Positions 1,347-53,300 of a DNA stretch of 64,000 nucleotides are shown piece after piece (position 1 is the stretch's first letter; each line of letters starts with the position of its first letter). Source of the stretch: Paraspadella gotoi (Eukaryota > Animalia > Chaetognatha); assembly GCA_051294375.1 (NCBI GenBank), contig CM119271.1, positions 8,918,120 through 8,982,119 on the forward strand. Direction: 5' to 3'. Under the pieces are notes generated by a model. That model made no database searches. It was not told the DNA's origin and worked only from the letters and a program-made list of their open reading frames with translations. The position numbers and the translations under genes are program-made.

Positions 1347-4300
1347 ATGGATGAAGTAAAACCGGAGAAGGGAATCCAACCTGAAGTAACGTCTCCTGCT
1401 GTCGTCGTTCGTCCCCCGCTTGAGCCGACGGCCGAACACCCCCTAGTAGACCCCGTTCAGTCTCAAGTGTCCGCTGGATCGGTCGACACCGGAGCCGTAC
1501 GGGCTAGCAGTCCGGGTCAGTTTTGAATTGTTGCAGGGATGGAAAGAAATTCGTCCACAAAAGCTTTGATTTTATTTAACCTTCAACTATTTCGATTTTA
1601 GGCATAGGTCAGCACTCTCCTCATTCGGGAACGAGCCACTATACTGGATATCTACCTCAATTGCACAACGAAAATAGCATTTCACCAGCAAATCCTCAAG
1701 CAACTCCTCAAAACGGTCAACACGGAAACTTGCCGCAAATCACGTTCGGCCCACAAACCGAAAGTCACACAAATAACACGGGATCAGGTCACAACCCAGG
1801 ACCAGTCGACTCAGAATCAGGTCTTTGGTTAGGAGATTGAGGATGTGTTTATTTATGTTTGTTATTGTCATAATTGTTATTTTTAATAATATGAAACATT
1901 TATAATAACATTGATTTGCAGGAATCGTTGTTCAAGGTCACGACCAGGTTCGTCAAATGGAGACTAGGCTGGTGGTGGCTGAACAATCTAATAGGGCGCT
2001 TCTGGACGAAGTCCTTCGACTTCAAGGACAACTCCAGAGCGCCGTCAGAGCTTCCCAGGATGCCCTGGCAGCGGAAAGAAAGTCGAGGGATCAGCTGGAG
2101 GCTGTCCTCATCAGCATCAAAGAGAGCGTGGCCCAGCTTTCATCTCGTCTGGAGCGGGCTGAGGGTACGACCCAACTGGATCGTTCCTCGCTGGCCGCAG
2201 TCGTCAACCAGGCAAAAGCGCTGGAGCAAACCCTCATTCAGACCCATGGCGAACTGAAGGGGAATCAGAGCCAGCAAAGTGCCCAGTTACAAGAGATGCG
2301 AGCCGAGTTGAACGAAATGAACGCGACGCACAATCGCATGGAATCATTGGTTTACAATCTGGCAGACGACCTGAGGGAACTCAGAGCTGCGGCCAACATG
2401 CAGTTCATGCAATTCCAAACCACCACCGCCGAGCTCAAGCAGAAGACTGACAAGATCAGTCACGACAACAAAAAAGTGGCAGAGAAGATCCGGGCCCATC
2501 AGGACACGGCTGCCCAGAGCGAAGTCAACACGGCGAATCTACGCATACAAGTTGAAGCGCGGTTGTCCGAACTAAGCCGTGCCTTGCTGGACCTAAATGC
2601 CAAGGTGGAGAATTCCATACAGAAGCAGAACCTGCTCGAGCAGACAGTTGTTGACAGGTTGGGCGACGTTCAAGCCACACTCAAGGAGCAGCACGGCAGA
2701 GTCGAAGACACAGAGGATTACATCAAGTCTCACCTGAATAAGGAGAGGGGCAGCGTCGAAGCCGACCGGTTGGCGCTCAGATCCGAGGTCCAGCGCCTCC
2801 AGGAACACACGTCCGGTCAGTTGCAGGAGGTGGAACAAAAGCTTCAGGAGGGTCTCGATAAGCGGATGGATCTCCTCGAAAAGGAGGTCGGGAACCACAT
2901 GGGGCAATTGCAGGTGGTCGAGGCTCAGTTCCAACGCGTCCTCAAAGACCACGAAAACGATGTCGAGACAAGGATGGAGGAGGACATCGCCGCCCTCCGT
3001 ACCGAGTACCAGGAGGGCCATCAACGCCATCACACCATGCTGGCAAAGATCAACGAAGGGTTGAACCTGTTGGAAGAGCAATTTTGCGAGTCCCGGCGGC
3101 AGCTGGAACGCGTCGTGGCGGCGGAGATCAAGGAGCGCCAGCAGAGGGACGTCTGGAGCCGCCAGCAGCTGGAGGGCGTGCAGGAGCGGCTCCGCCTCAG
3201 CGTGGCCACCCTGCAGAGTTCCATCGGGACGCTGGCCTCCGATGTGGCCGAGACCAAGAAGAAACAGCACGAGGCGATGATGGACATCGTGGCCAACCAG
3301 TCGACGTCCGTCGGCCACACGCTCGTCGACCTCGATTCGCGCGTCGAGAACCTGACGATGCGGTTGCAGGAGTCCGAGTCTGTCCTGCAGAACCGCATAT
3401 CCGGGTTGTCGTCGGCGTCTTCCATGAGCGAAGTCGCCGACCTCCTCTCGAACCTCAACGCGAGGGTCGCCTCGCTCACCCAGTGGCAAGACGTCACGCA
3501 GCAAGCCATCACCAGGTCCGCGCGGCTCTCGGTTTCATTTGTTTCATTACATTCAATATATGCTTTTAAATTTAAATTTCATATTGTGAACAGCTTCCGG
3601 GAAAGAATGGCGATCATTTCCGGCGACATGTCGGACCTCCAGAGCAAATTGACCAACGCTCAAGTGGACGTAAACAACCGTTTGAGCGGCGAGGCGCTTC
3701 AAAGGGCCGAGGACTTCTCCCGCTTCCAGGCATCGTTGGAGCAAGTCCAGATGGTCGCGAATAGCAGCGTCTCGGAGCAAAAGGTTCATGACGTTTGAAA
3801 AAGTTTCGGGTTTTAAGGACCATCTTGTTGTTAGAGATGTTCGGTAATTGATTCTTTGCTGTTTTCAGGCCGCCAGAGACACGATGAAGAAGATCGCGGG
3901 ATCTCTGCACAACTTCAAGAACATCATCAACAACAAGCTTCAAACGGAGACGACGCAACGCGCGGAATGCGTCAGCGCCTTGGAGGACGACATCAAGGCG
4001 CTCGAAGAAGAGTTGAGCAAGATCAAGGCGCAGTATGACGAACAGTTTGAAACGCCTCGACTCTCCGCGCACGGCGTTGGATCGGGTAAGTCGAAGGAGA
4101 TTGCAAAGGGATGTAACGAGCTGATCTTAAAAGTTTTATTGCCACCCCAGGATATTCAGTGTTGGGCAGTTTCGCGGCGTCGACGCGAGATCCCACGAGC
4201 CTTCGCGACGACGGCGGCGTTGGCGGCGACAAGGGTCAGCAGCAGCAGCCGCCTCCGCCGCCGCCCAAACCGAGGAAAAGCTCCGCCTCGCCCAAGCGAA

Positions 4301-12400: not shown

Positions 12401-14954
12401 CTTCCTCGTCGAGCCCCTTCTGCGCAAGTCGACGACGACGCCCGTTTTCCGGATCAGAGGAGGGTTCCTCCTCTGAAGAGTCTGCTGGCGGGTTTGACAA
12501 CTTCTTGTCGCGTCGTTGTCTGTACAGCCTTCGGAGTGGTCCTACAGCAGTGGAGGATTTGCGCAGTTGGCCAGGACGACGTTCTTTACCGTCGTGGGAC
12601 GTGCTTTCGCCAATACGCATTTCCGGCGCTGGTCGGATGTCTCTTCGCCGGCGGATTTTTGTCCTCCTGCTCAAGAGAGTTGCCTTGCCGCTCAGTTCGA
12701 CGCCGTTCGGAAGGACTCCAAGACGACGCGCGCTTTCAAGGCTTTTGAGCGCATCATGAGGGACGCCGGAGCGTCCGCTCATGCTGTCCTTTCTGTCGCT
12801 GACGCTCTCCGCCTCATGGTTGAGGCCCTTCGCTCGGAGGGGCCCGGTGCAGTGGACGCAGGCCACCTTGACGATCTTGCCAAGCCCCTTGGAGACGCCT
12901 CGTCGGGTTTGGCGGCGATTTTTGGTTCGGCCCTCTTGAGTCTCGGCGCTTAGTTGTCGACGCTGCCCCTTCGGATCTCAAGACAGTTCTGTCCAGTTCT
13001 CCGCCCTCACGTCGTTCTTTTCGGAGACCGCTCCACAGACGTCACTCAAGGCGTCCATTCTTCGCTTCCCGCTCGGGCGCCTCACAATTGCGCCTGTTCT
13101 GCTAGCCGCAAGCGTGGGCGTGGCAGTCCGCGTAGTCCCGCTCGCCATCCCTACCGGCCTCGCAAGTCTTCGCCGGCTCCCAAGCGTAGGGGCGGGGCTC
13201 CAGGGACGTCTAAGGACGCCGACTGATCGCCCGACAGCTCTTTTGGCCGTTGCCGATGTCCGGCCGTCAGTTTCTCCAGGCCCGGCTTTCGTCCATGGAC
13301 TGTTTTTTTGCGGTTTCTCATCCCCCCTTCTACGACGTCCGGTCAAGTGGCGTGGCACATCACCGAAGTCTTCGCGGGATTCCCCCCTCTTGGTTTGCTT
13401 GGTTACGAGTGATTCTGTCTCGTGTCGGCGTACTGAGGTAGCGTACGGGAGGGGAAGAGAAGGCGGGGAAGAGGAGGTTTCCTCTTCGTTTTTCTTTCGG
13501 GAGATGTCGAGTTTGCAGAGCAGATGCTCACTTTGTTGGTGGGGAAGAACCATGAAGAAATCCCGGTTCCATTTGGAACCATAAATTCTTCCGTGATGGA
13601 TTAATTCCTCGTTTTATAGGAGTGAGGAAGGACGTTCGACAAGATGCGTCTCACCTGAAAGCGGACATGGATAAACAAAAGGCGAATCTCATCGACGCCT
13701 TGTGTCGCAAAGGATGCGCCATGGCCGATTGGGTTTTAGCCCAATCGAGGAAGAAGAAAGAACCCATCAAAAAGGCCACTTCAGAGACTCAGACCGAAGG
13801 TGAGAATGAGAGAGGGAAAGGGAATGAGAAAGGCTGATATAAAGTGGCGCGTTATTTTTTGGGTTTTTTTGCAAATGAAAGATGTTGATGAGACAATAGT
13901 AGTAATTAGTATGACAGTTGATAAAAATAACCTAATTCATTTATTTTTTTATGAGTCTGGATTCGTTACTAATAATACTAATACTAATAATGGTCTACAC
14001 TCGAAGAGTGTTATTTTTTAGTAAAAGTCGACGAGGATGATGATAAGGAACCTTCGCCGGAAGTGGCATCCGAAGCGACGGAAGATTGCGCGACCCCGGC
14101 CGTTGAAGCAGCGCTCATCGATTTGGAAGCCACGCCCGTCGCTGAAGAAGATGCGCCCGTCGCTGAAGAAGCCAAGCCCGTAGATGAGGACGTCACGCCC
14201 GTCGCTGAGGAAGTCGCACCCATCGATACTAGAGCCAAACCTGTCATTGAGGCAGCCACGCCCATCGCTCAAGAAGCTACGATCGTCAACGGATCCGGCG
14301 ACGATGCAGGAGTTGAGACTCCGCCGTCCGCCAGAGAGAGCGCTGAGTATCTAAACGAAGGGGATGGGGACGCCGAGAATGTCAACGACGGTCATGGAGA
14401 CGCCGGGGACGACGGTGATGGGGATGCGGAGGAGGAAGATGACGAGGATGTGGACGCCCAGGAAGGAGATGCCGAGGACCTTGAGGGTGACGAGGAAGAG
14501 GCCGTCACAGAAGAGCCCGTGCCCGAGAAAGCTCCGAGAGAGGACTTCAAAGTGGAAGAAGGTTGTTTCGCCATAGTCAAATACAAAGCTTCAGACGTTG
14601 ACGAAATTTTGAAGGAACTGTTGATGTACGCTGACATCTCATCGCGCGAGTGTCATCCCTTCTTGACTAGGCACGCCTACGTGCACAGGTTGGTGTCACT
14701 TTGGGTGTTTTTGAATTCCTTTTGGTATTTTATATGTAGATTGTACAACTTCCCCCCCCCCTCTTCCTTGTAGGCATTATGCTCGAGCGATCAAGTGCCT
14801 TATGAACGAGGATCCCAAGGCGGACACGAAAGCTTCTAAGGAGAACGATAAACATTTGATCGAATGTTATCGTTACTTAGGATGGGAACACTGCGTCCGT
14901 TTCGCCGAGTCCAATTTATCCGCTAAATACCCCATTAATTACAGGCCGTTTTAA
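6464..14954 (+). CDS. TPP2: Tripeptidyl-peptidase II (subtilisin-like S8 protease), ~15 exons
   Basis: Catalytic motifs [16 protein letters not shown] (Asp), GSHGTHVAGIAA (His, split by an intron) and [13 protein letters not shown] (Ser); N-terminal [14 protein letters not shown]; C-terminal KYPINYRPF*. Confidence 0.96.
12057..13592 (+). mobile_element. Internally deleted, non-autonomous DIRS-like (tyrosine-recombinase class) retroelement in TPP2 intron 12007-13619
   Basis: Imperfect ~140-bp inverted terminal repeats (12056-12196 vs 13408-13550); extra right-end segment 13551-13585 with a GGTTCC-ATTT-GGAACC hairpin ending ATAAATT; TTCTTCC at both junctions (12057-63, 13586-92); GC-rich interior with a decayed gag-like frame (12516-13226, internal TAG, 'VVLFG' followed by a basic tail). 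Confidence 0.72.
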
Positions 14955-26526: not shown

Positions 26527-26992
26527 CGCGGGGCTTCGAATGGCAAAAACATAAAAACAAACATAAAAAAAGAAAAACAATATCGAAAACAACGATCCTA
26601 AGGGAATCGTTTCGGCTAAGCGCCGTTAATAACCGCGTGCGCTATCGCGTGTTTATTCCTGGGAGAAAGGGTATCGGGGTTGGGAAGAAAGTTTTTAGGC
26701 GTTTATAGGGTTGATTATTAATTTTTGCCCTCTCCAAAATCTCCGCTGGCATTGATTTTTCGATCGTAACGTCGCAAAGTTTTTGAATAGGTTTTATATT
26801 TCGCCCTCGAAGCTTTTTAGTCGGATCTGCTTATCAGCAGATCCCGACTCTATTAACTCACTTTTTATAACTCACTTTTTCGGTCCGTCGGTCCCGCCCC
26901 TCAATATTGTCGGGCACACACTTATATCATGTCAGAACATCGAATTATGATAAATTATGCAAAAAAAATGATGTCCTCCGTCTGTTCTGTCT

Positions 26993-27056
26993 GTCCGTCC
27001 GTCCGTCCGTCCGTCCGTCCGTCCGTCCGTCCGTCCGTCCGTCCGTCCGTCCGTCC
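26993..27056. repeat. (GTCC)n tetranucleotide microsatellite inside the HINE
   Basis: About 15 direct GTCC units. Confidence 0.95.
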
Positions 27057-27069
27057 CACCTTAGCAAAA

Positions 27070-27970
27070 ACACCAATTACTCGTGATTGGATGGATGGAT
27101 TTAAATGAAATTTTGTGTGTGGATAGGTAAGTGTGTGATTGAGCTGGATATTAAGTTTCGATGGAATCGTCCGAGTGGAAATGAGTTTAAATGGAAAAAA
27201 CAAAAAAAAATATATTCACTAGTTTGAACACCAATTGCTCATGAGTGGATGGGCTGATTGACCTGGAATTTTGTATGTGGGTAGGAAAGTGGTGTGTGAT
27301 TGAACAGGAAATCAAGTTTCGATGGGAATAGTTTGAGTGGAAATGAGTTTAAATGGGAAAAAAAACAAAAAACCTGTTTTACTAATTGATTATGCTTCTT
27401 TTTCCTTTTTATATTAAATGTATCTGCAGGATGTATTAATAAATCAAATAATTAATCAGTTAATTAATCAATTAGTAAATAAATTAATCAATAATTAATT
27501 AATTAGTCAATCAATCCGTCCATCCGTCCCATCTTAGCAAAAAGCTCCAATAACTCGTGATTGGCTGGTTGGATTGGAATTAAATTTTGTCTGTGGGTAG
27601 GAAAGTGTGGTGATAAAGCTGGATATAAAATTTCGATGGAATCGTGTGAGTGGAAATTAGTTTAAATGGAAAAAACATAAGTCGAATTTACTAAAATCTT
27701 TTTACTTATTTTAACCAATAAATACTCCAATTAATCATAATTGGATGGATAGATTGAGTTGAAATTTTGTGTGTGGGTAGGAAAACGTATGACGAAGCTT
27801 GATAATAAAGTTTCAGTGGAAACGTACCAGTGGAAATGAGTTTAAATGAAAAAAATATGAGTCACATTTACTTGAATCTTTTTATTTATTTTAACCATGA
27901 TATAATTGAGATGAAATTTTGTGAGCCGGTAGGAAAGTGAGTGAAGAAGCTAGATATAAAGTTTTGACGG
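27070..27970. repeat. About five diverged ~160-180-bp internal repeats of the HINE
   Basis: Recurrent CCAATT...GATTGGATGG...AAATTTTGTGTGTGGGTAGGAAA...AAGTTTCGATGGAAT...GAGTGGAAATGAGTTTAAATG at ~27072, 27231, 27547, 27727, and a partial copy ~27910. Confidence 0.85.
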
Positions 27971-28523
27971 AATGCAAGTTGAAAAAAATTATGCAAGTTG
28001 AAAAAATGATGCAAGTTAAAAAAATCTTAAAAGCATAAGGATCGTCGCTATTGCATAAAAAGAAGAGAGAGAGAGAGAGAGAGAGAAAAGAGAGAGTGAG
28101 AGAGAGAGAGAGAGTGAGAGAGAGAGAGAGAGAGAGAGACATAAAATAAAAAAATCTTAAAAGACTCAAGATCGAGCCAGAGCCCACTATCATAGAAAAT
28201 TAATGAAAAAAACGGGAAAAAAACGAATGAATCATGCGATAACGAATTGTTGATGTACTAGTAATTGATTGAGGTAATACTAATTGATTGATGTAATAGT
28301 AATTATTGATGTAATAGGAATTGATTATTGATTCGATGATAATCAATTATTGATGCGATGATAGTCATTCACTGCTGTGATGATAGTCATTCAGTGATGC
28401 GATGATTGTCATTCATTGATTCGATGATTGTCATTCATTGATGCGATGATAGTCAATAAACAAACAAATGCGTGTATGAGTGAAAGAGAAGAGAGAGAGA
28501 GAGAGAAAAGAAAGAGAGGAGAG

Positions 28524-28560
<37 letters not shown>

Positions 28561-28995
28561 AAGAGAATAAATCCACGAAAATCTCGGATGAAAATATGGG
28601 ATTTTGTATTGAAAAAAAGCGCGGAATAAATGGCAATAATAAAAAGTTTTTAGAAGGAAAAAATAATCAGAATTTTTCAAAAACAAACGATCACGCAAAA
28701 GATCGGACAGATAGGGACAGACACACACAGAGAGACAGAGAGACAGAGAGAGAAGAGAGAAAAGAGAGAGAGAGAGAGACAGCCGCTGCAGAGAAAAAAA
28801 GAAAGAGCGATATATAATAATTAAAAGAGAGAGAGAGAAGCTCTACAGCCCCTTTACTCGTTAAAGAATCAGCAGTACTTATGGCGCCCGCACGTAGCGT
28901 GAGCTATTCTCTACCCAAAGGACCCGGGTTCGCGCCCTGTTCGCGGCATCGTTTTTTACATTAGTGAACCCACATTATATCTAAAAAATTTTTTG

Positions 28996-29037
<42 letters not shown>

Positions 29038-29975
29038 AGCTGGACAGACGCTGCAGAGCCGGAACTCGTTTTTAGAAGAAGCAGTGATGGAGAAAAAGAG
29101 AGAGAGAGAGAGCGACATATAATTAAAACGTTTTTTGTTTTGTGAATAAAACATAAACAAATACCAATATTGATTGAAACATGAGAATTTTAAAGATCTT
29201 GATGATTAGAAGCCATATATGAAAATTCAACTCCCTATGATATCACACTTTCAGAAGCCATGATTGCAAAAAAGCGAGACCGAAAGCTGAACCGAAAAAA
29301 AATCTAGACAGGACGGGCTTTGCCGCCTGGCTCGATAATAGAGGATATTGGTTTGTTTTGATAAAATGTAAACAAAACATTTAATAACTGTCCTGACTCA
29401 ATTTTAAGGACATCGATGATGACAAGCTGAATATAAATTATAATTAATCTATTAATTAATTAATTAATTAATCAATCTATTAATTAATTAATTAATCTAT
29501 TAATTAAATTAATTAATCAATTAATTAATTAATTATCTTAGGCAGATCCGACATTGTTTGCTCAAACTTGTTTTTTTCTCTGTTTATTTACGTTTTCGTC
29601 GTATTCATCGCCATTCGAACGGACGCTACCGCGTCCATTCATTGGCGCGACCGTCGTTCCTCGTCAATCTTCCGGAAAGAATGAGAATAAACGTCTAATA
29701 AATAAACAAGTAAAAGTCGCCTCGGGAGCGAATTCCGTTGTTTCTCGCTGACTCGACACTTTTCCTTTTCTCCCCCAATTTTTTTTTTTTCTCGCGTCCG
29801 TCGATGGTTGTTTAGTTTGCGGATTATTTATTTCCATTCCCCCCTTCACTTCCGTGTGATGTATTAATTGCGCTTATATAGTCAGGACCCGCGTCGTTTG
29901 ACGGAACATTTTTTTTTTCCGACGGGAAATACGTGATTTAGATAGCCGTTAACGCTGAAAAACTAGATACATAAG

Positions 29976-42663: not shown

Positions 42664-43974
42664 CTAACTTGTTGTTGTCTTCAACTCAATTTTTTTTACC
42701 AATATTCCAGCTTTGGTTACAGTGTTTTATAATTGCTTGAGGTGCTATTTCAAACTATTACTTGGTCTTGAATCACATATGCCTTACGACTAATGCTACT
42801 TGGTATTATCTACTAACATAACTTCGGTGGGATTGAAGTGCTAAAATGTTTATTTTTTTTTGGTAGCTAGTTTTGTTTTGTAGTGGCTAAGGAAGTAACG
42901 GGTTCGCACTTTGAAAATGTTACATTTTTTATGCTATTTAATGAGTCCTTTAGATTAATTGTGAATACTCATAATTTTTTTTTCCTCAATTTTTCATCGA
43001 AGACTACGTATTGGCTGAAAAGAGGCTTGTAATTGCCGCAAATACAGTTTAATCCAAAAATTTGGCCGGACACGCTTTGCTCGTTAAAATTTCGGCAAGT
43101 TACAACTTGGCTTTAAAAATAATTCTTCATAATGAATTAACTTGAAACGTGTATCCGTTACATCCTTAGTGATAAATTTACGTCACCCTTTGTGCGGGTC
43201 ACTCAATTCCGATTTTCAGAAACCGAAAAGGGTTGAAGTGCATTTTTTGATATTTTATTTACAAGAAAAGACAGATTTATGGAAATACCAATATGCACTT
43301 GGATCGAACATTTATTCAGAGGGTTTTTTGTTGTCGAGCGCAAATCGCTCAACTTTTTTCGTCTTTGTAATTTGTCTACGTATTTTTTGTGCCTTTGCGA
43401 AATTCGATGGCACAGTTTTTTTTATGATTTTAGTAAGTAGTTTGTGCCATTCGGTGGCTTGTGTTTTTTTTTTTTCTAAATCCAGTTTAAATTTATTATG
43501 TGAAGAAGGTCCGGTATATAGCCTTCTTCTGCTTGCATTTTTTCATAGAGATACTTTGCATGACAGGTTTCAATAAATTTATACAATTTAAAAAACCAAA
43601 CAAAAAAAACCACTTTTACTCTTTCCGATGGCCAAATTTTCTCAATGTGTATTATTTATTATTTAAATCGAATCTCTTCGCGTCTTTTGTCGTTTTATCC
43701 TCCGGTTTTTCGTGGACGCGACCAAAAGTTGTTTTTTTTTTTTTGGCCCCATCCCCCCGTTTTTCTTTTCTCCTCCAAAGTATTGCGATGACAATATTTA
43801 TATACATATTTACTTTACAATACACCAAAACCGCTTTATGGGCGTCTCGGATGAACTCAATATTTATCTTTTCAGATATGAAATCATTCGGCGGGATGTG
43901 TCAGGTTTCAGTGACGCTTAACTAAAAAACAAAGAAAAAAGAAAAAAAAACTGAACAAAAATCGAAGGTCGATC

Positions 43975-46900
43975 ATGAGATCCCACGGCGGCTGGACTCA
44001 GGTGGAGGAATTTTCCCGCTTCGGCGTCGCCCTCCACAACTTCTCGGAGAACGGGTTTTCCCGCCTCTCCCTCGACGTCGGCGACACGTTGCACCTTCTC
44101 CAGGAGACGGAGGAGTGGTACTACGGCTTCAAGACGAAGAACCGCGGCCTCGTCGGCATCTTCCCCAAGTCCTACGTCCACGTCAAGGAATGCGAGGTCG
44201 ATCAGAGCGGCATCTATCCCTCTGCATCGCCCAAGGAGCCGCCAATCGCTCAGGAGATCACCTCTACCCTCCGCGAATGGCTCGTCCTCTGGAAAGGCCT
44301 CTACGTGGCCAAAGGCGACCACTTCAACCTCGTCAAACTCTACATGCAGCGTCTCATCGAATGGCGGAAGTTGCTCATGTGCGGCAAGCTGACGCAAGAG
44401 GAGACGCGGGACCACCATCAGAAAGTGGTCAACGCCATCGACACTGGCAACTCGGTGCTGGGATTGGACATGGTGGTCCGGGACGAGGACGGGAACGTGC
44501 TCAATCCCGAGCGCTCCGGCGCCGTCAAACTTTTTCGCGCTCACGAGCGCTCGGCGGAGATCATTCACGCGCAGCGCGAGACTATCTCCGGGAAGTTCAC
44601 GCAGAAGGCGCCCTCTATTCCGAAGCACACTTACTCGCTCATGTTGACTGTTGGGCAGCCTTTTAATTGCAACGTCGGGGAAGAGGTTGATCTACAGTTC
44701 GGCCTCTATGACTCGCACGCCTGTCGCTTTTTCACCGACTTCTATACCATCAGGTAGATGTTTTTTTGTTTTCATTATAGTTTCAGTTGAAAGTCTATTG
44801 AGTTGTGTGTTCTTACGTATTATCATCTTCCTCATTCTAGGCTGGCCAAAAACGGGAAAGCCAAGGAGATTCAGAATCACTCCACCAACTTCAAAGCCGT
44901 CTACACTGATTTAGGCAAGGAGGATTTACTTCACAAGTACCTAGTCTGTCAGATCGTGCGCTACGGCAAGATGGACCTCAAAGACCAGGACAAAAAGGGC
45001 CTCACTCTCGACCTCCGGCGCCCCTTCGGCGTCGCCGTCAAGGAAATTTCCTCCATCTTGATGCACAAACAGAACGAGGGCGACGAGGACAAATTCGAGG
45101 ACATCCCCGTCCACCCCTGCGGCGACCGAGAAAACTTCGACGCCGTCGTCAAAAAGGTCGTCTCCCAAAAGGACCTCTCCAGCCGGGCGCCCAGGGATTC
45201 GGTCAAGATTTCCCTCCGCAGACTTGAAGGCGACTACAAGCAGCTGATGGACGACTATCCCCACTTGGTTGTCGGCAACACGGCCGTTGCACGTAAAATG
45301 GGCTTCCCCGAAGTGATCTACCCGAAAGACTTTCGAAACGACATCTACGTGACCATCGTCGAGGGAGAGTTCTCTCCCAACTTCAAAAACGTCGAGGTCA
45401 CGATGACCGTTCACAACAGGGACGGAAAAAAACTGCCCGACGTCATCTGCGACGGACGTGGGGGATTCTCCGCCGACTTCCGAACCGTCACTTATTGGCA
45501 CGAAGTCCGACCCAAGTGGAACGAAACGATCAAGATTCAAATCCCGCAGGAGGTCTTCCGCGACTCTCATCTCCGCTTCGTCTTCAAGCACCGCTCGTCG
45601 ACGGAGACGCGCGATCGGGCGGAGAAGCCCTTCGCCCTCGCCTACATGAGGCTGATGAAGGACAAGGATCAGACGACGATTCACGACGGAGACCACGACC
45701 TCATTCTCTACGCCCTCAACCAGAGAAAGGCCGACGCCATCGAGGGATATCTCGACGTGCCCTCGCTCAAGAGCCAACTCGACTCGAGCCTCTACAACAA
45801 CCGGGTTAAGATGACGGCCGATTTGACGGTGACCAACAAGGACAATCTCAAGATTTCCACGTTGCTTTGTTCGACGAAATTGACGCAAAACGTGGACATA
45901 TTGAACGTCTTCAACTGGCGGGAGAACTCCAAGGGATTGCAGGACGTCCTTAAGGCGCTGATGGAAGTTCAGGGAGAAGAGATCGTCAAATTTTTGCAGG
46001 ACATTTTCGACATTCTGTTTTTGATTTTGATCGAGAATCAAGACTGCGATCTTTACGACAATCTCGTCTTCGAATGTTTGGTCTACATCATCACGCTCAT
46101 GTCCGACCGGAAGTATTCTCATTTCAAATCCGTTTTGGACGTGTACATTCACGAAAACTTTTGCGCCACCCTTGCCTACAACAAGTTGATCGTCGTGTTG
46201 AAGTATTACATTGACCACTGCTTGACCGACCCGGACGAGGAGCACAACCGCGCCGTCCTGCAAAAGGCGCTCAAGTCGATCAAGTACATTTTCAAGTTCA
46301 TCATTCGATCCTGGAAGATGTTCTCGGAGCTGCGGGAAGGTCAGGGACGTAAGTCCTTCATCGATTCTCTCGAAAGCCTTTTCGAGTCGCTGGCGAAGTT
46401 GATGTCTTTCGTCTCTGAAACTTCCCTCCCCGTTCAGGGCAGCGCCCTCAAGTATTTGCCTTGCATAGTTGACGACGTCATCCAAGAATTCGAACCTTTA
46501 GACTTAACGCGCTTGTTGGTTAGTTTCCCCGATAATCTGTCGCCGAAGCGGTTGACGCGTCAAAAGACCCAGTTTCTGGATGACCTCATCAAAACCAACC
46601 TGTTTCACATCGAAGCTTGTCGAGAAGAATTGATTTCGGCCATCTGCAAGCACCTGGCCGAACCGCTCGGAAGTCAGACGGAAACGGAGTTGGAATCCGT
46701 TTCTGACGTCCTCATGGATATGATGGACGCGCTTCATCGCAACGATATCGGTTCCAACACGAAAGATCTTATGACCATTTTTCTCAAATTGATGAGACCT
46801 GTCATTCAAAACGGCGTCATCGCGCAACAACGCGTATCGAGTTTGAGGCCCAAATTTGTGTCGGTCATGATAGCGATGCTCGCGTCCATGAGCGAGTGGC

Positions 46901-49812
46901 ATTATCAAAATTATCTCTGCGGTTTTGCGACGTCCATCGACGTCCAAGATTTTTTGACGGAAATTCTGATGGTTTTCTGCGATCTAGTCAGCAAAGACAA
47001 CAGCGTATTTCAAAAGGATTGGAGTCAAATGCTGCTGTTTCAAAACGCGGTTATTTTAAAATCATTGCGGCTATTCTCCGGAACCATAACTCAACTTTTT
47101 ATTCACCCCAATGATTTTAAGATACAATTGCTGCGGAATTTTTTTTACTGCTCAGTGAAATTTCTCACCCACGAATCCATGCAATTGGAGACTTTTTCGC
47201 AAAACAAGAGGAAAAAGATAATATCCAGGTACAAGGACATGCGACGCGAAATGGCCTATGAGATCAAGCTGATGTGGCGAAGTTTGGGCGGGAATAAGCG
47301 ACATTTCGTCCCGGATTTAGTAGGACTCTTTCTGGAGATGAACCTGATTCCACAACCTGACATTCGTCGCCTCACCATCCCCATATTCTACGAAATGATG
47401 GAGTGCGAGTTCAAGCAAATCATTCCCGGCTCCACTGGCCGCGGGGGCATCAAAGGGAGTTTCGACGAGTTCGAGAGCGAAATGATCGAACAGCTGGACG
47501 TCCTCGTCGAAGGAGGCCAAGGCGACGAGGCCTACAACGACCTCTTCAAAAAGATCATGACGGAATTGTGCAACCTGTGCGACGTGCCGCAATTGAAGGC
47601 GCAAGGGAAGGATTTCGTCAAGACGGTCTGCAATCTTTTTCAAAGGCTTCTCCAGTACAGAGCCATGATCAATGACGAGAGCACCGACAACAGAATGAAA
47701 TGCACCGTCAACTTACTAGAATTTTACAACGAGCTAGAACGACAAGAGATGTACATTCGTTATTTGTATAAACTGAGCGACCTTCACATGGACTGCGACA
47801 ACTTTACCGAGGCCGCTTACACGCTCATGCATCACGCTCGTCTTCTAAGTTGGTCCAAGGAGGAACTTCACAAAAAACTGGAAACGGAGAAATATCCCGA
47901 CTGCCACACTCACCTCGATCTGAAAGTTCGTCTCTACATCGACATCATAGACTTGTTCGACAAGGGCAAACTCTGGGAAAAAGGGATCGAGCTCTGCAAA
48001 GAGCTGGCTCAGTTGTACGAGAACGAACTTTACGACTATAATCAACTGAGCTTTATTCATCGAAAATTAGCCAACTTTTTCGACAACATCTCCCTCACGG
48101 ATTTTCGCCCAGAACCCGAGTATTATCGCGTGGGTTTCTACGGAAAGGGTTACCCCTCCTTCCTTTGCAACAAAGAGTACGTGTACAGGGGGGAAGAGTT
48201 GGAACGACTGGCCGATTTCACGGCGCGGATACAGAATCAGTACCCGCAGGCGAAGCTGATGGACAAATTGCTCCCGCCCAAGAAAATCCCAGGAGAATAT
48301 CTGGAATCCAAGGAGCAGTACCTTCAGATCAATCGGGTGGCCCCCGTCATGGACCCCGGCATGAAGCGCAAATTCAAGGGGAAAAATGTCGCCGTTCAAA
48401 TCTCGCGTTATTACAAAGTCAACGAAGTTCGAGAGTTCACTTTCGACAAGCGACTCAAAAAAGCTTCTCCGGGAGTCGACGAATCTAGCGATATCGGAAC
48501 GTTATGGGTAGAAAGAACCACTTTGGAAACGACCTATTCCTTCCCGGGAATTTTAAGGTGGTTCCCCGTCTCGTTTCACAAAACCTTTGAGATCTCTCCG
48601 CTCCAGTTCGCCGTGGAGACGATGGAAGATAAAAGCAAAGACCTAAGGTCCAAGATCGAAAGGGCCTGCCACCCGAACTTCAATATCGACATGCTCTCAA
48701 TGAACCTCAACGGGATCATCGACGCCGCAGTCATGGGCGGCACCAAAGAGTACGAGAAAGCCTTTTTCACCCCAGCCTACCTGCAGGCGAACTCGCATCA
48801 CAAGCACCTCGTCGAACAGTTAAAGGATCAGATCGCCATGCAAATCCCCATCCTCGCTGAGGGAATCGAAATTCACCGGCAGCTCGCCCCCGTCTCGCTC
48901 AGACCTTTCCATCAAAAGCTCGAGGAGTGCTTCAAGATTCACCGGGAACACGTCATTCAAAACTACGGAAAGGCGGAGGCTTACGAAGTCGCTTATCGCC
49001 GTCGCCCCTTGCCGCGAGCTCAACCCGCTCCAGTGTCGTACGTAAAGCAGACGGAGGAGTCCGCGGAGCAGCAGCGCAGCAGCGAGACTGATTCCGAGGA
49101 GAGCATCAGCCTCAAGTCCTCCTCGAAGCTGGCATCGATGGGGAGCAAGATCGCCAGCGTTTCCAAGGGTTTGTCGAGCAGCAGCGCGCGGGCTCTGACG
49201 TCGCCCAACAAAATGTTCAGCATAACCGGGAACGCCGCCAAGCATTTAAGCAATAATGGGTTGATCGCGAGCGGCGGCGGCGGATCCAACCAACAGCCTG
49301 ATCTCATTACCAACGGCGTCGTTTCGCCGTCTTCGCAGCAGCAGCAGCATCAAATCGAATTGTCGCAAGAGTTGACCCCGCAAAGGCCGCCCCGCCCCTC
49401 GGTGGATGCGAGGAACGCCTCTCGTCCTCCGAGTGACGGCAGCAACAACAGTCAGCCTCAGATCAACTCCCTGCATCCGTCGAGCAGCTTCGCCGCTTCC
49501 AGCGGCATCGGCAGCCCGGACTCGGACGGTCCGCCCCCGCTGCCGAGCAAGGGTGAACACGCCTCTGTCTGTAGCGCCACTTCCGGATTGGGACTCTCGC
49601 GAGATTCCTCCGGCGGCAGCGGAGACCTGCTGCGGGGTATTCAGTCCTCCCTGTCGACCATGGCTCTTGGAAGCGGGGAAATTTTGTCGCCCGATTCGGC
49701 GGGCGGACCGCCTGCCATTCCCAAGAAGGAAATGGTCGACGCTCCGCCGCCGTCTCTGCCGCAAAAGGGGAGGGTCTCGATTCAGGGGTTGAGTCAATTG
49801 CAAAATCATTAA
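43975..49812 (+). CDS. Dedicator of cytokinesis, DOCK-A subfamily (DOCK1/5, myoblast city-like) Rac GEF, 2 exons
   Basis: N-terminal SH3 (LDVGDTLHLLQETEEWYYG...GIFPKSYV), DHR1 (ARKMGFPEVI...RNDIYVT), DHR2 (NGIIDAAVMGG..YEKAFF) and Pro-rich tail; single intron 44754-44840. Confidence 0.95.
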
Positions 49813-50368: not shown

Positions 50369-53300
50369 ATGGAGGCGGCCGGAGACTTTTTCGCCTCCAC
50401 CACCCAACAACTGGCGCGCTCCGCCGCGGCGTTGCCGGCTTCCGAAGTGAGTCAATCGAGTTGATCCTAATCAGTTTTGGTGATTGGAAAAAAAAAATTA
50501 AAGACGAAATGATTTGATTTGATTTGCAGATTTAAACTTAAAGTTAGTATTTGATAAATGTGATTTGGTATAAAAAAACAAAAGGTGTTTGACGAATTTT
50601 AGATTAAACAAAAGGCTATCCTCATATTTTCGTCAAAATTTTATTGTGAAAATATATTCTTACACAAAACCAAAAAAGCGTTTACTGTTATGCCTGAACG
50701 AATTAAGTAATACGTATAACCTCTGTGTAAATTATTAACTAACGTCAAATTATGTTGCACTTACCTCAAAGGCAATGCCGCACGTACAGCGGCTGCTCAG
50801 CTTCTGCCCCAACCTGCATCAAGGAACTGTTCTGCGGATGGATGGAAGGTCGAGAGACGCCGTCATTGCGCTGGGAATTTATTTTCTCGGTTCGTTTTTC
50901 TTTCTACTCTACAATCTACATCAAACATGTTCTTAAATTTTAAATTATTTTAGAGAGCGGCCTGCAGTACAAAGAAGAGATCCTTCCGTACTTGTTAAAT
51001 ATACTGCGCAGTTTGCTGAGGGCTCATTGGGTGGATTCTCCGCGGAAACCCTCGCGCACCTCCCCCGCCGGAAGTTCCGGGGCAGGAGGACGCGGCGCCG
51101 CCAGCGTTTTGCCACCCAGCGAATGTTTCAGCTTCGCGCTCAACACGTTACTCACCGACATTGCCGCTCGGGATCCCGCGTCGCAACATCAGGTAAGGTT
51201 GTTAGTTTGATTTATCTTGACTTTAGCATATGATTACCTTGCTTTTTCCAGATCATTGCGGCGCAGCTTAACGTCATGCAAGAGTTGGCCAAGGCATGCC
51301 AGAGCGGGACTCATTGCGAGCATCCGGCCCTGGCACTAAAGGCGCAAACTAATCTTTGCAAGACGCTCATCCCTACTTTTTTAGGGTTAACCAGGTAAAG
51401 GAGTCCAATGAAATATAATTAACTGAAATTTCGCTTTAAAACGCTTGCCCACTTTCACATACACTTCTCTATTGTTCGCCTAGGGCATTCGGACGCCAAC
51501 CGCCCGGCTATTTGGGTGGAGTGACGGACAAGCCTTCCGACAAGGACGACAGCACTGCGCCGTTGTTCATTCGTCTCTTTCCTGCGCCGGTCGTGCCGCC
51601 GCAACCGACCAAGGATTCGGAGAAGGATTTCGAGAAGCAGAGCAAAAAGGTAAGAGGGATGAGTAGGGATCGGAAAAAAGAGAGGACTGTGGCGAATCCT
51701 AATCCTATAGCTTGGTGAAACTCAGCTCGTCCCATTGGCTTGGACAGCTAAGTACTCGTTCACCAACCGTGAGTTCCGGGTTCAATCGCCTCACGGTCAC
51801 GCTGGTTAAAGTGTGATGGTGTCGGCATAAACACGCCAGTGACATGGGATGGTAACTGCAGGTCCAAAGCCCTGAGCGCCAGGTGTCGGGAGATGCTTCA
51901 CACCCCGGGCATCACACATGTCCCCCCGTTGCCATTGGACTCACTTTTTTGAGGCGAGGCTCGTCACCTTTTCTCCCTTTTTCCGTTCCAAATCCCCAGG
52001 TATTCTCCTTCCGCCCAATCATGCCCAAGTCCTTGTCCCAAAACGTCTTGACTCAAATGTCGGTGAATTCCAACGGAACTGGTGAGTCCCGGGTTCGCAG
52101 TCGTCTTCCGATGCATGCTCGCTCGCGAGAAGAGCTCTTCTTTCGTCTTTTGACTCGCGGGAAAAAACTTTTTTTGAGTTTCAATCGTAATGTCGTAGAA
52201 TATAGTCCTATACTATTTGAGGGAGACGAAAAGTTACGTATATTGGGAAATTTATTTATTTAGAAGTAAAATAAACACCCCAGCCCCGTGTGTATCGGTG
52301 AACCTATCAGCAAAAATATTCACTTATTCAAATAATCACATGTAAAAAGTTATTGCAGACGTAGTGTCAAACCCGCTCCCTTTATATATTTTAGTTAGTG
52401 GGAATAATATAGTTTATCACACGTTAACCAAAGTTTTAGTTAACTTTTTTCTCTCTTTGGTTTCATTTAACCTTTAACCTTTGGTTATTCGGAAATATTT
52501 ACTCGAAAATACATATTACTATGATCCGCTCTTGAGATTAAAGAGAGCGCTATAAAATATTCATAGTAAAAAAAACACTTTGTATTTAATATCGTAACTT
52601 TTATTTGGTGTCTATATACATATTTTTCCTATTTTTTGTCGTCGTCGTCGTTGTACCTCGTCTCTCTGGCCTCGTTACCTCCTCTGCATGTTCCGTTCGC
52701 TTTTCACCAGCCGATATTCACCATAACCGCAAAGGCTCCCATACGTCGCAGGCGACCCAGGCCAGTTATGGAGTCTTCCTTGATGTACCCTCTCTGGGTT
52801 CAGGTAAAACCGGGAACGGCGACACCCTTTTTCCCCCCTGTTGGGTTGCACTCTTGTCTGTGAGCGTGTGTTGTAAAGAAAGCGTGGGAGTATGGAAATG
52901 TTTTTAATTTGTTTGACCAACGTCCAATTGTCTATTGTTCAATTATGTCCTCTTTGGGTGAAAGTTCTTTTCATCAGTAGATAGTTGTGATCTCATTTCC
53001 CTCTTGCTGTTTCTAATACCAGTCCCGTCTTGCTTAATTATGGGGACTCCGAAATACGAAAATTTTTTATTACACTTAGCATGGGTTTTAATTTCTGACA
53101 GTCTCTAAAAAGAAATTATTCCCACCGCACTCTTGCACGTCCTAGCACAGGGATGTGTGGTTTTTTGTGGAGTTTTTTTTTAATTTTTTTTTTATTCTTT
53201 TTCGATCTACGTCCTTTTATTTTTATGCGTAATTTTGTCTAACCCTTATCTTCTCATCCCGCGCTACAGCGCAAGCCGCCGGTGGTCTGCACGGCAGCTC

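Follow-up and report, generated by a model that had tools for sequence, protein, structure and literature searches.

Background

Self-cleaving ribozymes recur in the described groups of short retroelements that come closest to the locus reported here. According to Cervera, Urbina and de la Pena (2016, PMC4918200), the long terminal repeats (LTRs) of plant retrozymes measure 300-400 bp, hold an internal hammerhead ribozyme in a blocked conformation, are flanked by 4-bp duplications and also occur as solo LTRs. Animal twister ribozymes have been assigned few functions, and their link to retroelements in the literature consulted is with the 5' end of RTE-type long interspersed nuclear elements (LINEs). 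The present work concerns a twister of type P5 (Roth et al. 2014, as described in PMC5408937 and PMC6765202) found in a 64,000-nt stretch of the chaetognath Paraspadella gotoi genome (GenBank assembly GCA_051294375.1, contig CM119271.1, positions 8,918,120 to 8,982,119 of the forward strand; hereafter the window, whose first letter is position 1), within an intron of the gene PI4KA. This twister occupies the middle of a 249-bp dispersed repeat, whose retrotransposition it probably serves, and for PI4KA itself it is likely a near-neutral passenger.

Work on the rice twister provides the framework for judging such a candidate. G45 is given there as the general base (PMC5408937), a mutation scan singled out G13, G30, A46 and G48 as intolerant positions (PMC5113685), and stem P1 is described as dispensable (PMC5408937, PMC11662667); among 1948 natural twisters that were scored, imperfections in P1 brought no loss of cleavage, type P1 being the one to which the previously reported set belongs (PMC11662667). 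On the side of the mobile element, the rules stated for solo LTRs are a 4-6 bp duplication of constant length, blunt ends and TG(T)...CA termini (PMC8969392).

A type-P5 twister fold in the PI4KA intron

The first-pass annotation of the window had proposed that all elements of the twister fold can be placed in P5 order, and each of the pairings concerned was indeed found in the sequence (Table 1). The full type-P5 descriptor, comprising the loop, both pseudoknots, P1, P2 and P4, matched once on the two strands of the window and not at all in 2.04e9 random bases (composition-matched, third-order Markov), with relaxed descriptor levels giving 484 and 1 random matches; the descriptor was designed after the candidate had already been seen. 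The fold is not a product of chance, and it is a real twister fold rather than an artefact. Reading the same region as a type-P1 twister was rejected, the 3' strand having neither the G-A nor a T1 partner for the loop.

The counterparts of the four intolerant rice positions, as given by the Rfam alignments, are all present (G51835, G51869, A51816 and G51818); their assignment to G13, G30, A46 and G48, respectively, depends on these alignments and on the numbering in use for rice. G51815 would act as general base by the example of rice G45 (PMC5408937). The earlier concern over a P1 of only 2-3 bp was right as to the length of the stem, but as a threat to activity it shrinks because P1 has been reported dispensable (PMC5408937, PMC11662667).

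The pseudoknot T1 had been described as a compensated U-A variant, a description that holds against public sequences. Viral and prokaryotic collections were scanned with both T1 letters left free, giving 13 and 23 loci, respectively; identical cores, the window and six metagenome matches (L001-L006) were dropped from the T1 counts. In the six distinct well-formed P5-like matches the T1 position was always paired (five G-C, one U-A), whereas this was so in only 12 of the 25 poorly formed ones. Several public matches carry P3 inserts of 16-22 nt, a precedent for a P5 twister with a long P3. Natural P5 twisters do occur with U-A at this T1 position, and also with a long P3. A narrow twister pattern gave no viral match, and the six metagenome matches show no likeness to the chaetognath repeat beyond the twister core. 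Among them, L005 carries two type-P5 twisters above the Rfam cut-off (597-656 and 768-819), about 110 nt apart and with a short open frame in between, one of which has U-A at T1 and scores 45.6 bits. L001 (267-323) and L003 (282-338) are near-identical and hold a P1-type twister below the cut-off, with the U-A variant of T1 and a P1 of about 2 bp.

The twister lies in the middle of a dispersed repeat

Contigs from six of the 11 listed sequencing runs were placed on the region, five of DNA (X1, X5, X8, X4 and X7) and one, X9, that is RNA-like and is taken by guess to be an RNA run. Summed over the contigs, depth in the flanks is 13-99, but between about 51688 and 51935 it reaches tens or hundreds of thousands. 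Before the first of these boundaries, 25, 24 and 5 contigs (X4, X7 and X9, respectively) have loose flanks that are mutually unrelated (agreement 0.42-0.55). Behind the second the corresponding numbers are 105, 82 and 17 (agreement 0.45-0.49), the 105 contigs of X4 all leaving at 51935 into unrelated sequence (agreement 0.45); the pooled 3' flanks agree at 0.44-0.49 over the runs. The jump in depth, together with unrelated flanks at both boundaries, identifies a dispersed repeat with two sharp ends. DNA depth is about level over 51721-51876, without the slope that 5' truncation would leave, and the flanks are AT-rich. The repeat is present in at least about 100 copies; the ratio of summed to flank depth, about 3,100, is a ceiling and no copy number, because overlapping contigs are summed. 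No second copy was found in the window.

At five positions 94-99% of the summed depth, contributed by other copies, differs from the copy in PI4KA. At two of them the common letter forms a pair where the PI4KA copy has a mismatch, one within P3 and one lengthening P5, so the family has a better twister than the copy through which it was discovered; at a third, the common letter completes a B-box. The PI4KA copy is also about 9 nt shorter than the family near 51700-05. The intact twister thus belongs to the family, from which the copy in PI4KA has drifted slightly. The predicted cut falls mid-repeat, 141 nt from its start and 108 nt before its end.

The ends of the repeat agree with those of a solo LTR in being blunt on both sides (boundaries 51688 and 51935) and in starting with TG(T). 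The pair TG..TA is an accepted non-canonical combination of termini. In the PI4KA copy there is neither a poly(A) nor a simple-repeat tail, and a genuine terminal inverted repeat is absent too: most of the arms around its ends belong to the flanking intron. Neither by eye nor by Rfam was a hammerhead core or a selenocysteine insertion sequence (SECIS) element seen in the repeat, the intron having been searched at E<=10 for hammerhead. No conserved body extends beyond either end among the loose-end groups listed, one tandem-like (goes-back) joint occurs among the 15 listed of 47, and a chosen subset of 36 window frames held no reverse transcriptase family and no GIY-YIG/reverse transcriptase frame.

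Hairpins and a B-box-like motif

Folding of the region predicts a hairpin that competes with the twister for the P2 strand, G51815 and A51816. Its mean pair probability is 0.79-0.96 in four contexts and its energy -13.1 kcal/mol at 25 C, under a folding model that scores no pseudoknots. This hairpin is a feature of the family, since none of the five majority differences falls within it. As most copies share it, it may represent an off-state built into the element RNA and not damage. The twister region as a whole is no more stable than its shuffles (z 0.17 to 0.81 in three of four spans, -0.27 in the fourth).

The 5' half of the repeat contains two further stable hairpins, the second of which is capped by a B-box-like motif whose last base departs from the RNA polymerase III (Pol III) consensus, as taken from PMC8969392, in the PI4KA copy. 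This half contains no tRNA (ARAGORN, 0 genes) and no credible Rfam family match. An A-box pattern matched only at 51713 and 51803, neither of them 30-35 nt before the B-box, which itself lies 91 nt from the 5' end. At 51766-51797 a T-loop-like heptamer is closed by a 3-bp stem, which a bulge of 5 nt separates from a 7-bp stem. This structure looks like the upper part of a tRNA that lacks its remaining arms, and may act as a B-box for Pol III or as a signal for processing.

The PI4KA intron as host site

The first-pass annotation had placed the twister in sense orientation inside a 350-nt intron of PI4KA, and both the exon matches and a contig that skips the intron agree with it. Flanking exons match human PI4KA (E 4.5e-07, 0.0039 and 5.9e-15) and Pfam PI4K_N, the five exons around the intron form one open frame, and a single contig of the RNA-like run carries the spliced junction, leaving out the intron at GT..AG. 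Removal of the repeat and one GGAC leaves an ordinary intron of 97 nt, comparable with the neighbouring ones of 64, 59 and 89 nt. Around the 4-mer, the flanks of the emptied intron show an inverted match of 9/10, equalled at 15 of 63,976 window positions and made less surprising by the purine/pyrimidine skew of the intron ends. Both insertion junctions are present in X1, X5 and X8, and no empty-site joint appears among the rows listed (15 of 58 and 15 of 47). The 3' splice site lies 125 nt after P4, and the next exon starts 170 nt from the predicted cut.

The summed depth of X9 shows a dip that straddles the predicted cut: it amounts to 2986-3265 over 51812-51850, compared with 7535 to the left and 5768 to the right, and there is no trough in the DNA runs. 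As a trace of cleavage this dip was rejected and is not used as evidence, because the RNA/DNA ratio is equally low at 51903-51928, a few deep contigs dominate, a single run is concerned and lowered contig depth does not in itself count as a finding. Within 51688-51935 the deepest X9 contigs across the twister, matched by depth, seem to carry changes in the core (T2 and P3 at depth 339, T1 at depth 216), and one contig is without the stretch that contains the predicted cut site. Because long contigs favour diverged copies, these core changes are a mere lead towards a depletion of intact copies from stable RNA.

Table 1. Positions, within the window, of the twister elements, the repeat that carries them and the surrounding PI4KA intron
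Feature	Position	Strand	Description and basis
Type-P5 twister fold	51802..51882	+	Full P3 stem, P1 hairpin of 2 bp; Rfam alignment, descriptor, pairing check
P5	51802-05/51879-82	+	4/4 pairs; holds the termini of the fold
P2	51811-14/51831-34	+	4/4 pairs formed
G at general-base position, conserved A directly after	G51815-A51816	+	Rfam P5 model alignment
T1 pseudoknot	51817-19/51864-66	+	3/3 Watson-Crick pairs, including U51817-A51866
P1	51820-21/51826-27	+	2 pairs, possible extra U-G
UAA cleavage motif	U51828, A51829, A51830	+	Aligned in Rfam twister-P1 and twister-P5
Predicted U^A cleavage site	51828..51829	+	UAA placed by Rfam alignments
T2 pseudoknot	51835-36/51869-70	+	2/2 Watson-Crick pairs
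P3	51837-43/51852-58	+	6/7 pairs, one G-A mismatch
P4	51859-62/51871-74	+	4/4 pairs; conserved L4 loop aligned to Rfam model
Dispersed repeat copy with twister	51688..51936	+	249 bp, TGT start, family 3' boundary 51935/51936; contig depth, loose flanks
GGAC, left copy of 4-bp direct repeat (inferred target-site duplication)	51684..51687	.	Sequence, one copy only
GGAC, right copy of 4-bp direct repeat	51937..51940	.	Sequence, one copy only
Two stable hairpins, 5' half of repeat	51713..51797	+	51706-51800: z -3.47, 0/200 shuffles as stable
B-box/T-loop-like motif	51779..51788	+	About 0.016 expected per 249 nt; caps second 5' hairpin
Competing hairpin (predicted off-state)	51796..51817	+	51796-51802 with 51811-51817; occupies P2 strand, G51815, A51816; folding
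Upstream PI4KA exon	51484..51649	+	Identity via neighbouring exons on same contig
PI4KA intron containing the repeat	51650..51999	+	350 nt, GT..AG; skipped by X9 contig
Downstream PI4KA exon	52000..52081	+	Splice junction, open frame

Origin and role of the twister-bearing repeat

The copy in PI4KA is probably a passenger of the mobile repeat. As to the class of the latter, it is tentatively viewed as an LTR-like, twister-bearing non-autonomous retroelement, most similar to the solo LTR of the plant LTR-retrozyme design; the term LTR-like goes no further because there is no hammerhead, as the definition of an LTR retrozyme demands, and the canonical CA end is not found. A fuller version, possible but more doubtful, would make it an animal LTR-type retrozyme, with a terminal repeat holding a P5 twister, a blocking hairpin and a B-box, replication by way of a circular RNA cut by the twister, and at least 100 solo repeats of which one is tolerated in sense orientation in an intron of the essential gene PI4KA. 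In source elements, the 249-bp unit would likely serve as the LTR-like terminal repeat. [quoted passage not shown] Lone copies such as that of PI4KA would be solo repeats. There, cutting is likely slow or rare, because the hairpin forms earlier in transcription and would bury the catalytic G, and because P3 has a mismatch. The copy is likely tolerated, given that the hairpin is completed before the 3' half of the ribozyme, that the splice site follows so closely after P4, and that the cut halves should stay paired: the duplex of the cut products is predicted at -28.5 kcal/mol, and such pairing of the intron ends would hold a cut intron together.

Several observations weigh against this interpretation. 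An Rfam search of the whole window returned nothing at gathering score, and the twister is missing from the 11 matches obtained over the entire window at E<=10. The check by Rfam twister covariance models proposed in the first-pass annotation was run and turned out negative in that both scores stay below the gathering cut-off: twister-P5 (RF02684) reached 19.6 bits against 37.6 (E 0.022 on 111 bases), and twister-P1 20.3 bits against 67.2. Much of the P5 shortfall arises because in the alignment the long P3 appears as inserts and P1, being short, as deletions, both of which are penalised. Every structural feature of a type-P5 twister that was checked is there, the Rfam cut-off is missed, and activity is a prediction. 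Forcing the nested twister costs from 7.3 (core) to 17.8 kcal/mol (whole intron) relative to the free ensemble, with pseudoknots uncounted, and the family could be largely inactive, the bases of the competing hairpin being common to most copies. Regarding the element itself, the last CA of the repeat is followed by one or two further bases, the 4-bp duplication is seen in one copy only and would arise by chance about once in 128, and the best 18 of 514 loose-end groups revealed neither an element with two repeats nor a primer-binding site nor an autonomous partner. The B-box-like motif at 51779-88, fully on the Pol III consensus in most copies, points in another direction. Finally, the duplex between the intron flanks is no better than its base composition explains, 74 of 300 shuffles being as good; a special tether of the intron was rejected, the duplex being strong yet driven by composition.

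The B-box-like motif speaks for seeing in the repeat a Pol III-transcribed, tRNA-derived element similar to the short interspersed nuclear elements (SINEs), where the twister would cut monomers from multimeric transcripts, by analogy with the hammerhead-bearing SINE-like repeats of Schistosoma. The motif lies within a T-loop-like hairpin, the size of the repeat fits a SINE, and the schistosome repeats have a promoter followed by a ribozyme, the same order as here (PMC6765202). Nevertheless, ARAGORN and Rfam reveal no tRNA, the A-box matches are misplaced and the B-box stands far from the 5' end, while the PI4KA copy lacks a poly(A) or simple-repeat tail and has a duplication of only 4 bp, and tandem arrangement is confined to the single goes-back joint among those listed, so this origin is rather unlikely. 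Derivation from a Penelope-like (Naiad-type) element, as its pseudo-LTR (pLTR) or a non-autonomous derivative with a P5 twister replacing the hammerhead, would fit the AT-rich flanks and the reported descent of animal retrozymes from Penelope pLTRs (10.64898/2026.07.22.740005). [quoted passage not shown]

The first-pass annotation had suggested that the twister could control PI4KA by cutting the pre-mRNA in competition with splicing, which would make it a host-adopted ribozyme in the manner of CPEB3. Its sense orientation and intact core suit such a role, as do the insertion junctions shared by X1, X5 and X8 with no empty-site joint among the rows listed, and fast intronic ribozymes can reduce splicing (Fong et al. 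2009, cited in PMC10274809). However, the copy is one of at least about 100 and has drifted by five substitutions, some 9 nt and a mismatch in P3; a spliced contig exists; and the stretch from the cut to the next exon is 170 nt as opposed to 9931 nt in CPEB3 (PMC10274809). Ribozyme control of PI4KA is accordingly left unsupported, because the repeat is multi-copy and entered a once 97-nt intron, its P3 is mismatched, the junction is spliced and a hairpin is predicted to bury G51815; such adoption is very unlikely, and as a matter of PI4KA regulation the twister is unlikely to count for much. Equally far from probable is a non-autonomous DNA transposon, similar to miniature inverted-repeat transposable elements, or another element that acquired a twister without present role. 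This would also agree with the sharpness of the ends, the short duplication and inverted termini that are short and imperfect (PMC8969392), and with a twister predicted to be folded off, but there is no real terminal inverted repeat, the listed arms being mostly intron flank, and P3 and P5 are better paired in most copies than in that of PI4KA. The source element thus had an intact fold, which movement through RNA explains more easily.

Other features of the window

One 7195-nt X9 contig (43915-52081) contains the 5' exons of PI4KA and about 6.4 kb further upstream, enough to cover the neighbouring DOCK gene, which lies on the same strand and ends at 49812. A contig over both genes is no proof of a single transcript, and read-through or overlap is possible. 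The DOCK gene (43915-49812), of the DOCK1/myoblast-city kind, consists of little more than two long frames, of 280 and 1673 codons, and is unusually poor in introns beside the intron-rich PI4KA; its best relatives are from a cockroach (50% identity), a scorpion (49%) and a priapulid (49%).

The intron-like segment 37844-37990 is rich in purines in its 5' half and in pyrimidines in its 3' half. It folds into a hairpin of considerable length (-65 kcal/mol at 25 C) and gives weak Rfam matches to plant microRNAs. The flanks of the PI4KA intron have the same skew, and introns that fold back on themselves may be frequent here. At 26850-29540 lies a group of tandem repeats (GTCC x21, units of 158 and 180 bp, ATTA and AG runs) that looks like nested non-autonomous elements, perhaps Helentron-like. 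At 13560-13605 a weak match to the Histone3 stem-loop (24.5 bits against a cut-off of 34) is unlike a histone 3' end and probably due to chance.

Comparison with known systems

With the type-P5 twisters of Rfam (RF02684, clan CL00120) the locus shares the order P2'-GA-T1-P1-UAA-P2-T2-P3-P4 and an intact L4, T1 and T2. It differs in its P1 of 2-3 bp, where the Rfam model has 8 and five of the six well-formed public matches have 9-12, in scoring below the gathering threshold, in lying in an animal repeat and in that its cleavage is predicted. Among the papers listed by the literature searches, no report of a twister in an LTR-like animal repeat came up; the supplementary twister lists of PMC11662667 could include this organism. 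A twister placed midway in a short, blunt-ended repeat that has a 4-bp duplication would bring a second ribozyme class into the retrozyme design and, if the LTR reading is true, carry that design to animals. Moreover, copies of the family, some intact and others decayed, lie in varied gene contexts and form a natural series, in which the tolerance of a genome towards sense self-cleaving RNAs in short introns becomes testable.

An intronic, sense-strand self-cleaving motif, here a predicted one, is also known from CPEB3 (PMC10274809), but that ribozyme, resembling that of hepatitis delta virus (HDV), is described as conserved mammal-wide, with its long distance to the next exon and a shown effect on the mRNA, whereas in PI4KA a drifted repeat copy has 170 nt. 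The twisters of RTE-clade LINEs (Perere-3, PMC8501958; RTE, PMC7761336) are likewise tied to an animal retroelement; according to these sources their cut sets the 5' end of the element and the target duplication helps to form P1, while here the cut falls mid-element and no coding body follows. In the Schistosoma repeats (PMC6765202) a Pol III-type promoter motif also stands 5' of a self-cleaving ribozyme in a short repeat, yet these are described with hammerheads, tandem arrays and a tRNA-related part, unlike the twister, the monomer and the B-box without clear A-box of P. gotoi.

Animal non-LTR retrozymes and the hammerheads of Penelope pLTRs resemble the present repeat in host kingdom, size range (150-450 bp), possession of a ribozyme, non-coding nature and many intronic copies (PMC7229834; 10.64898/2026.07.22.740005; PMC8557442). 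Both are reported with type I hammerheads, mostly in tandem and with duplications longer than 4 bp, instead of a dispersed monomer with a twister and a 4-bp duplication. The plant LTR retrozymes (PMC4918200) come nearest, sharing a short non-coding unit of terminal-repeat size, a ribozyme in mid position and predicted to be blocked, a 4-bp duplication and lone copies. They have type III hammerheads and belong to plants, whereas the repeat of P. gotoi has a twister, an animal host, a length of about 250-260 bp and a B-box-like motif; and where the plant elements are described with two LTRs, a primer-binding site, a polypurine tract and a circular RNA, the chaetognath repeat is known from a solo-type copy and pooled contigs.

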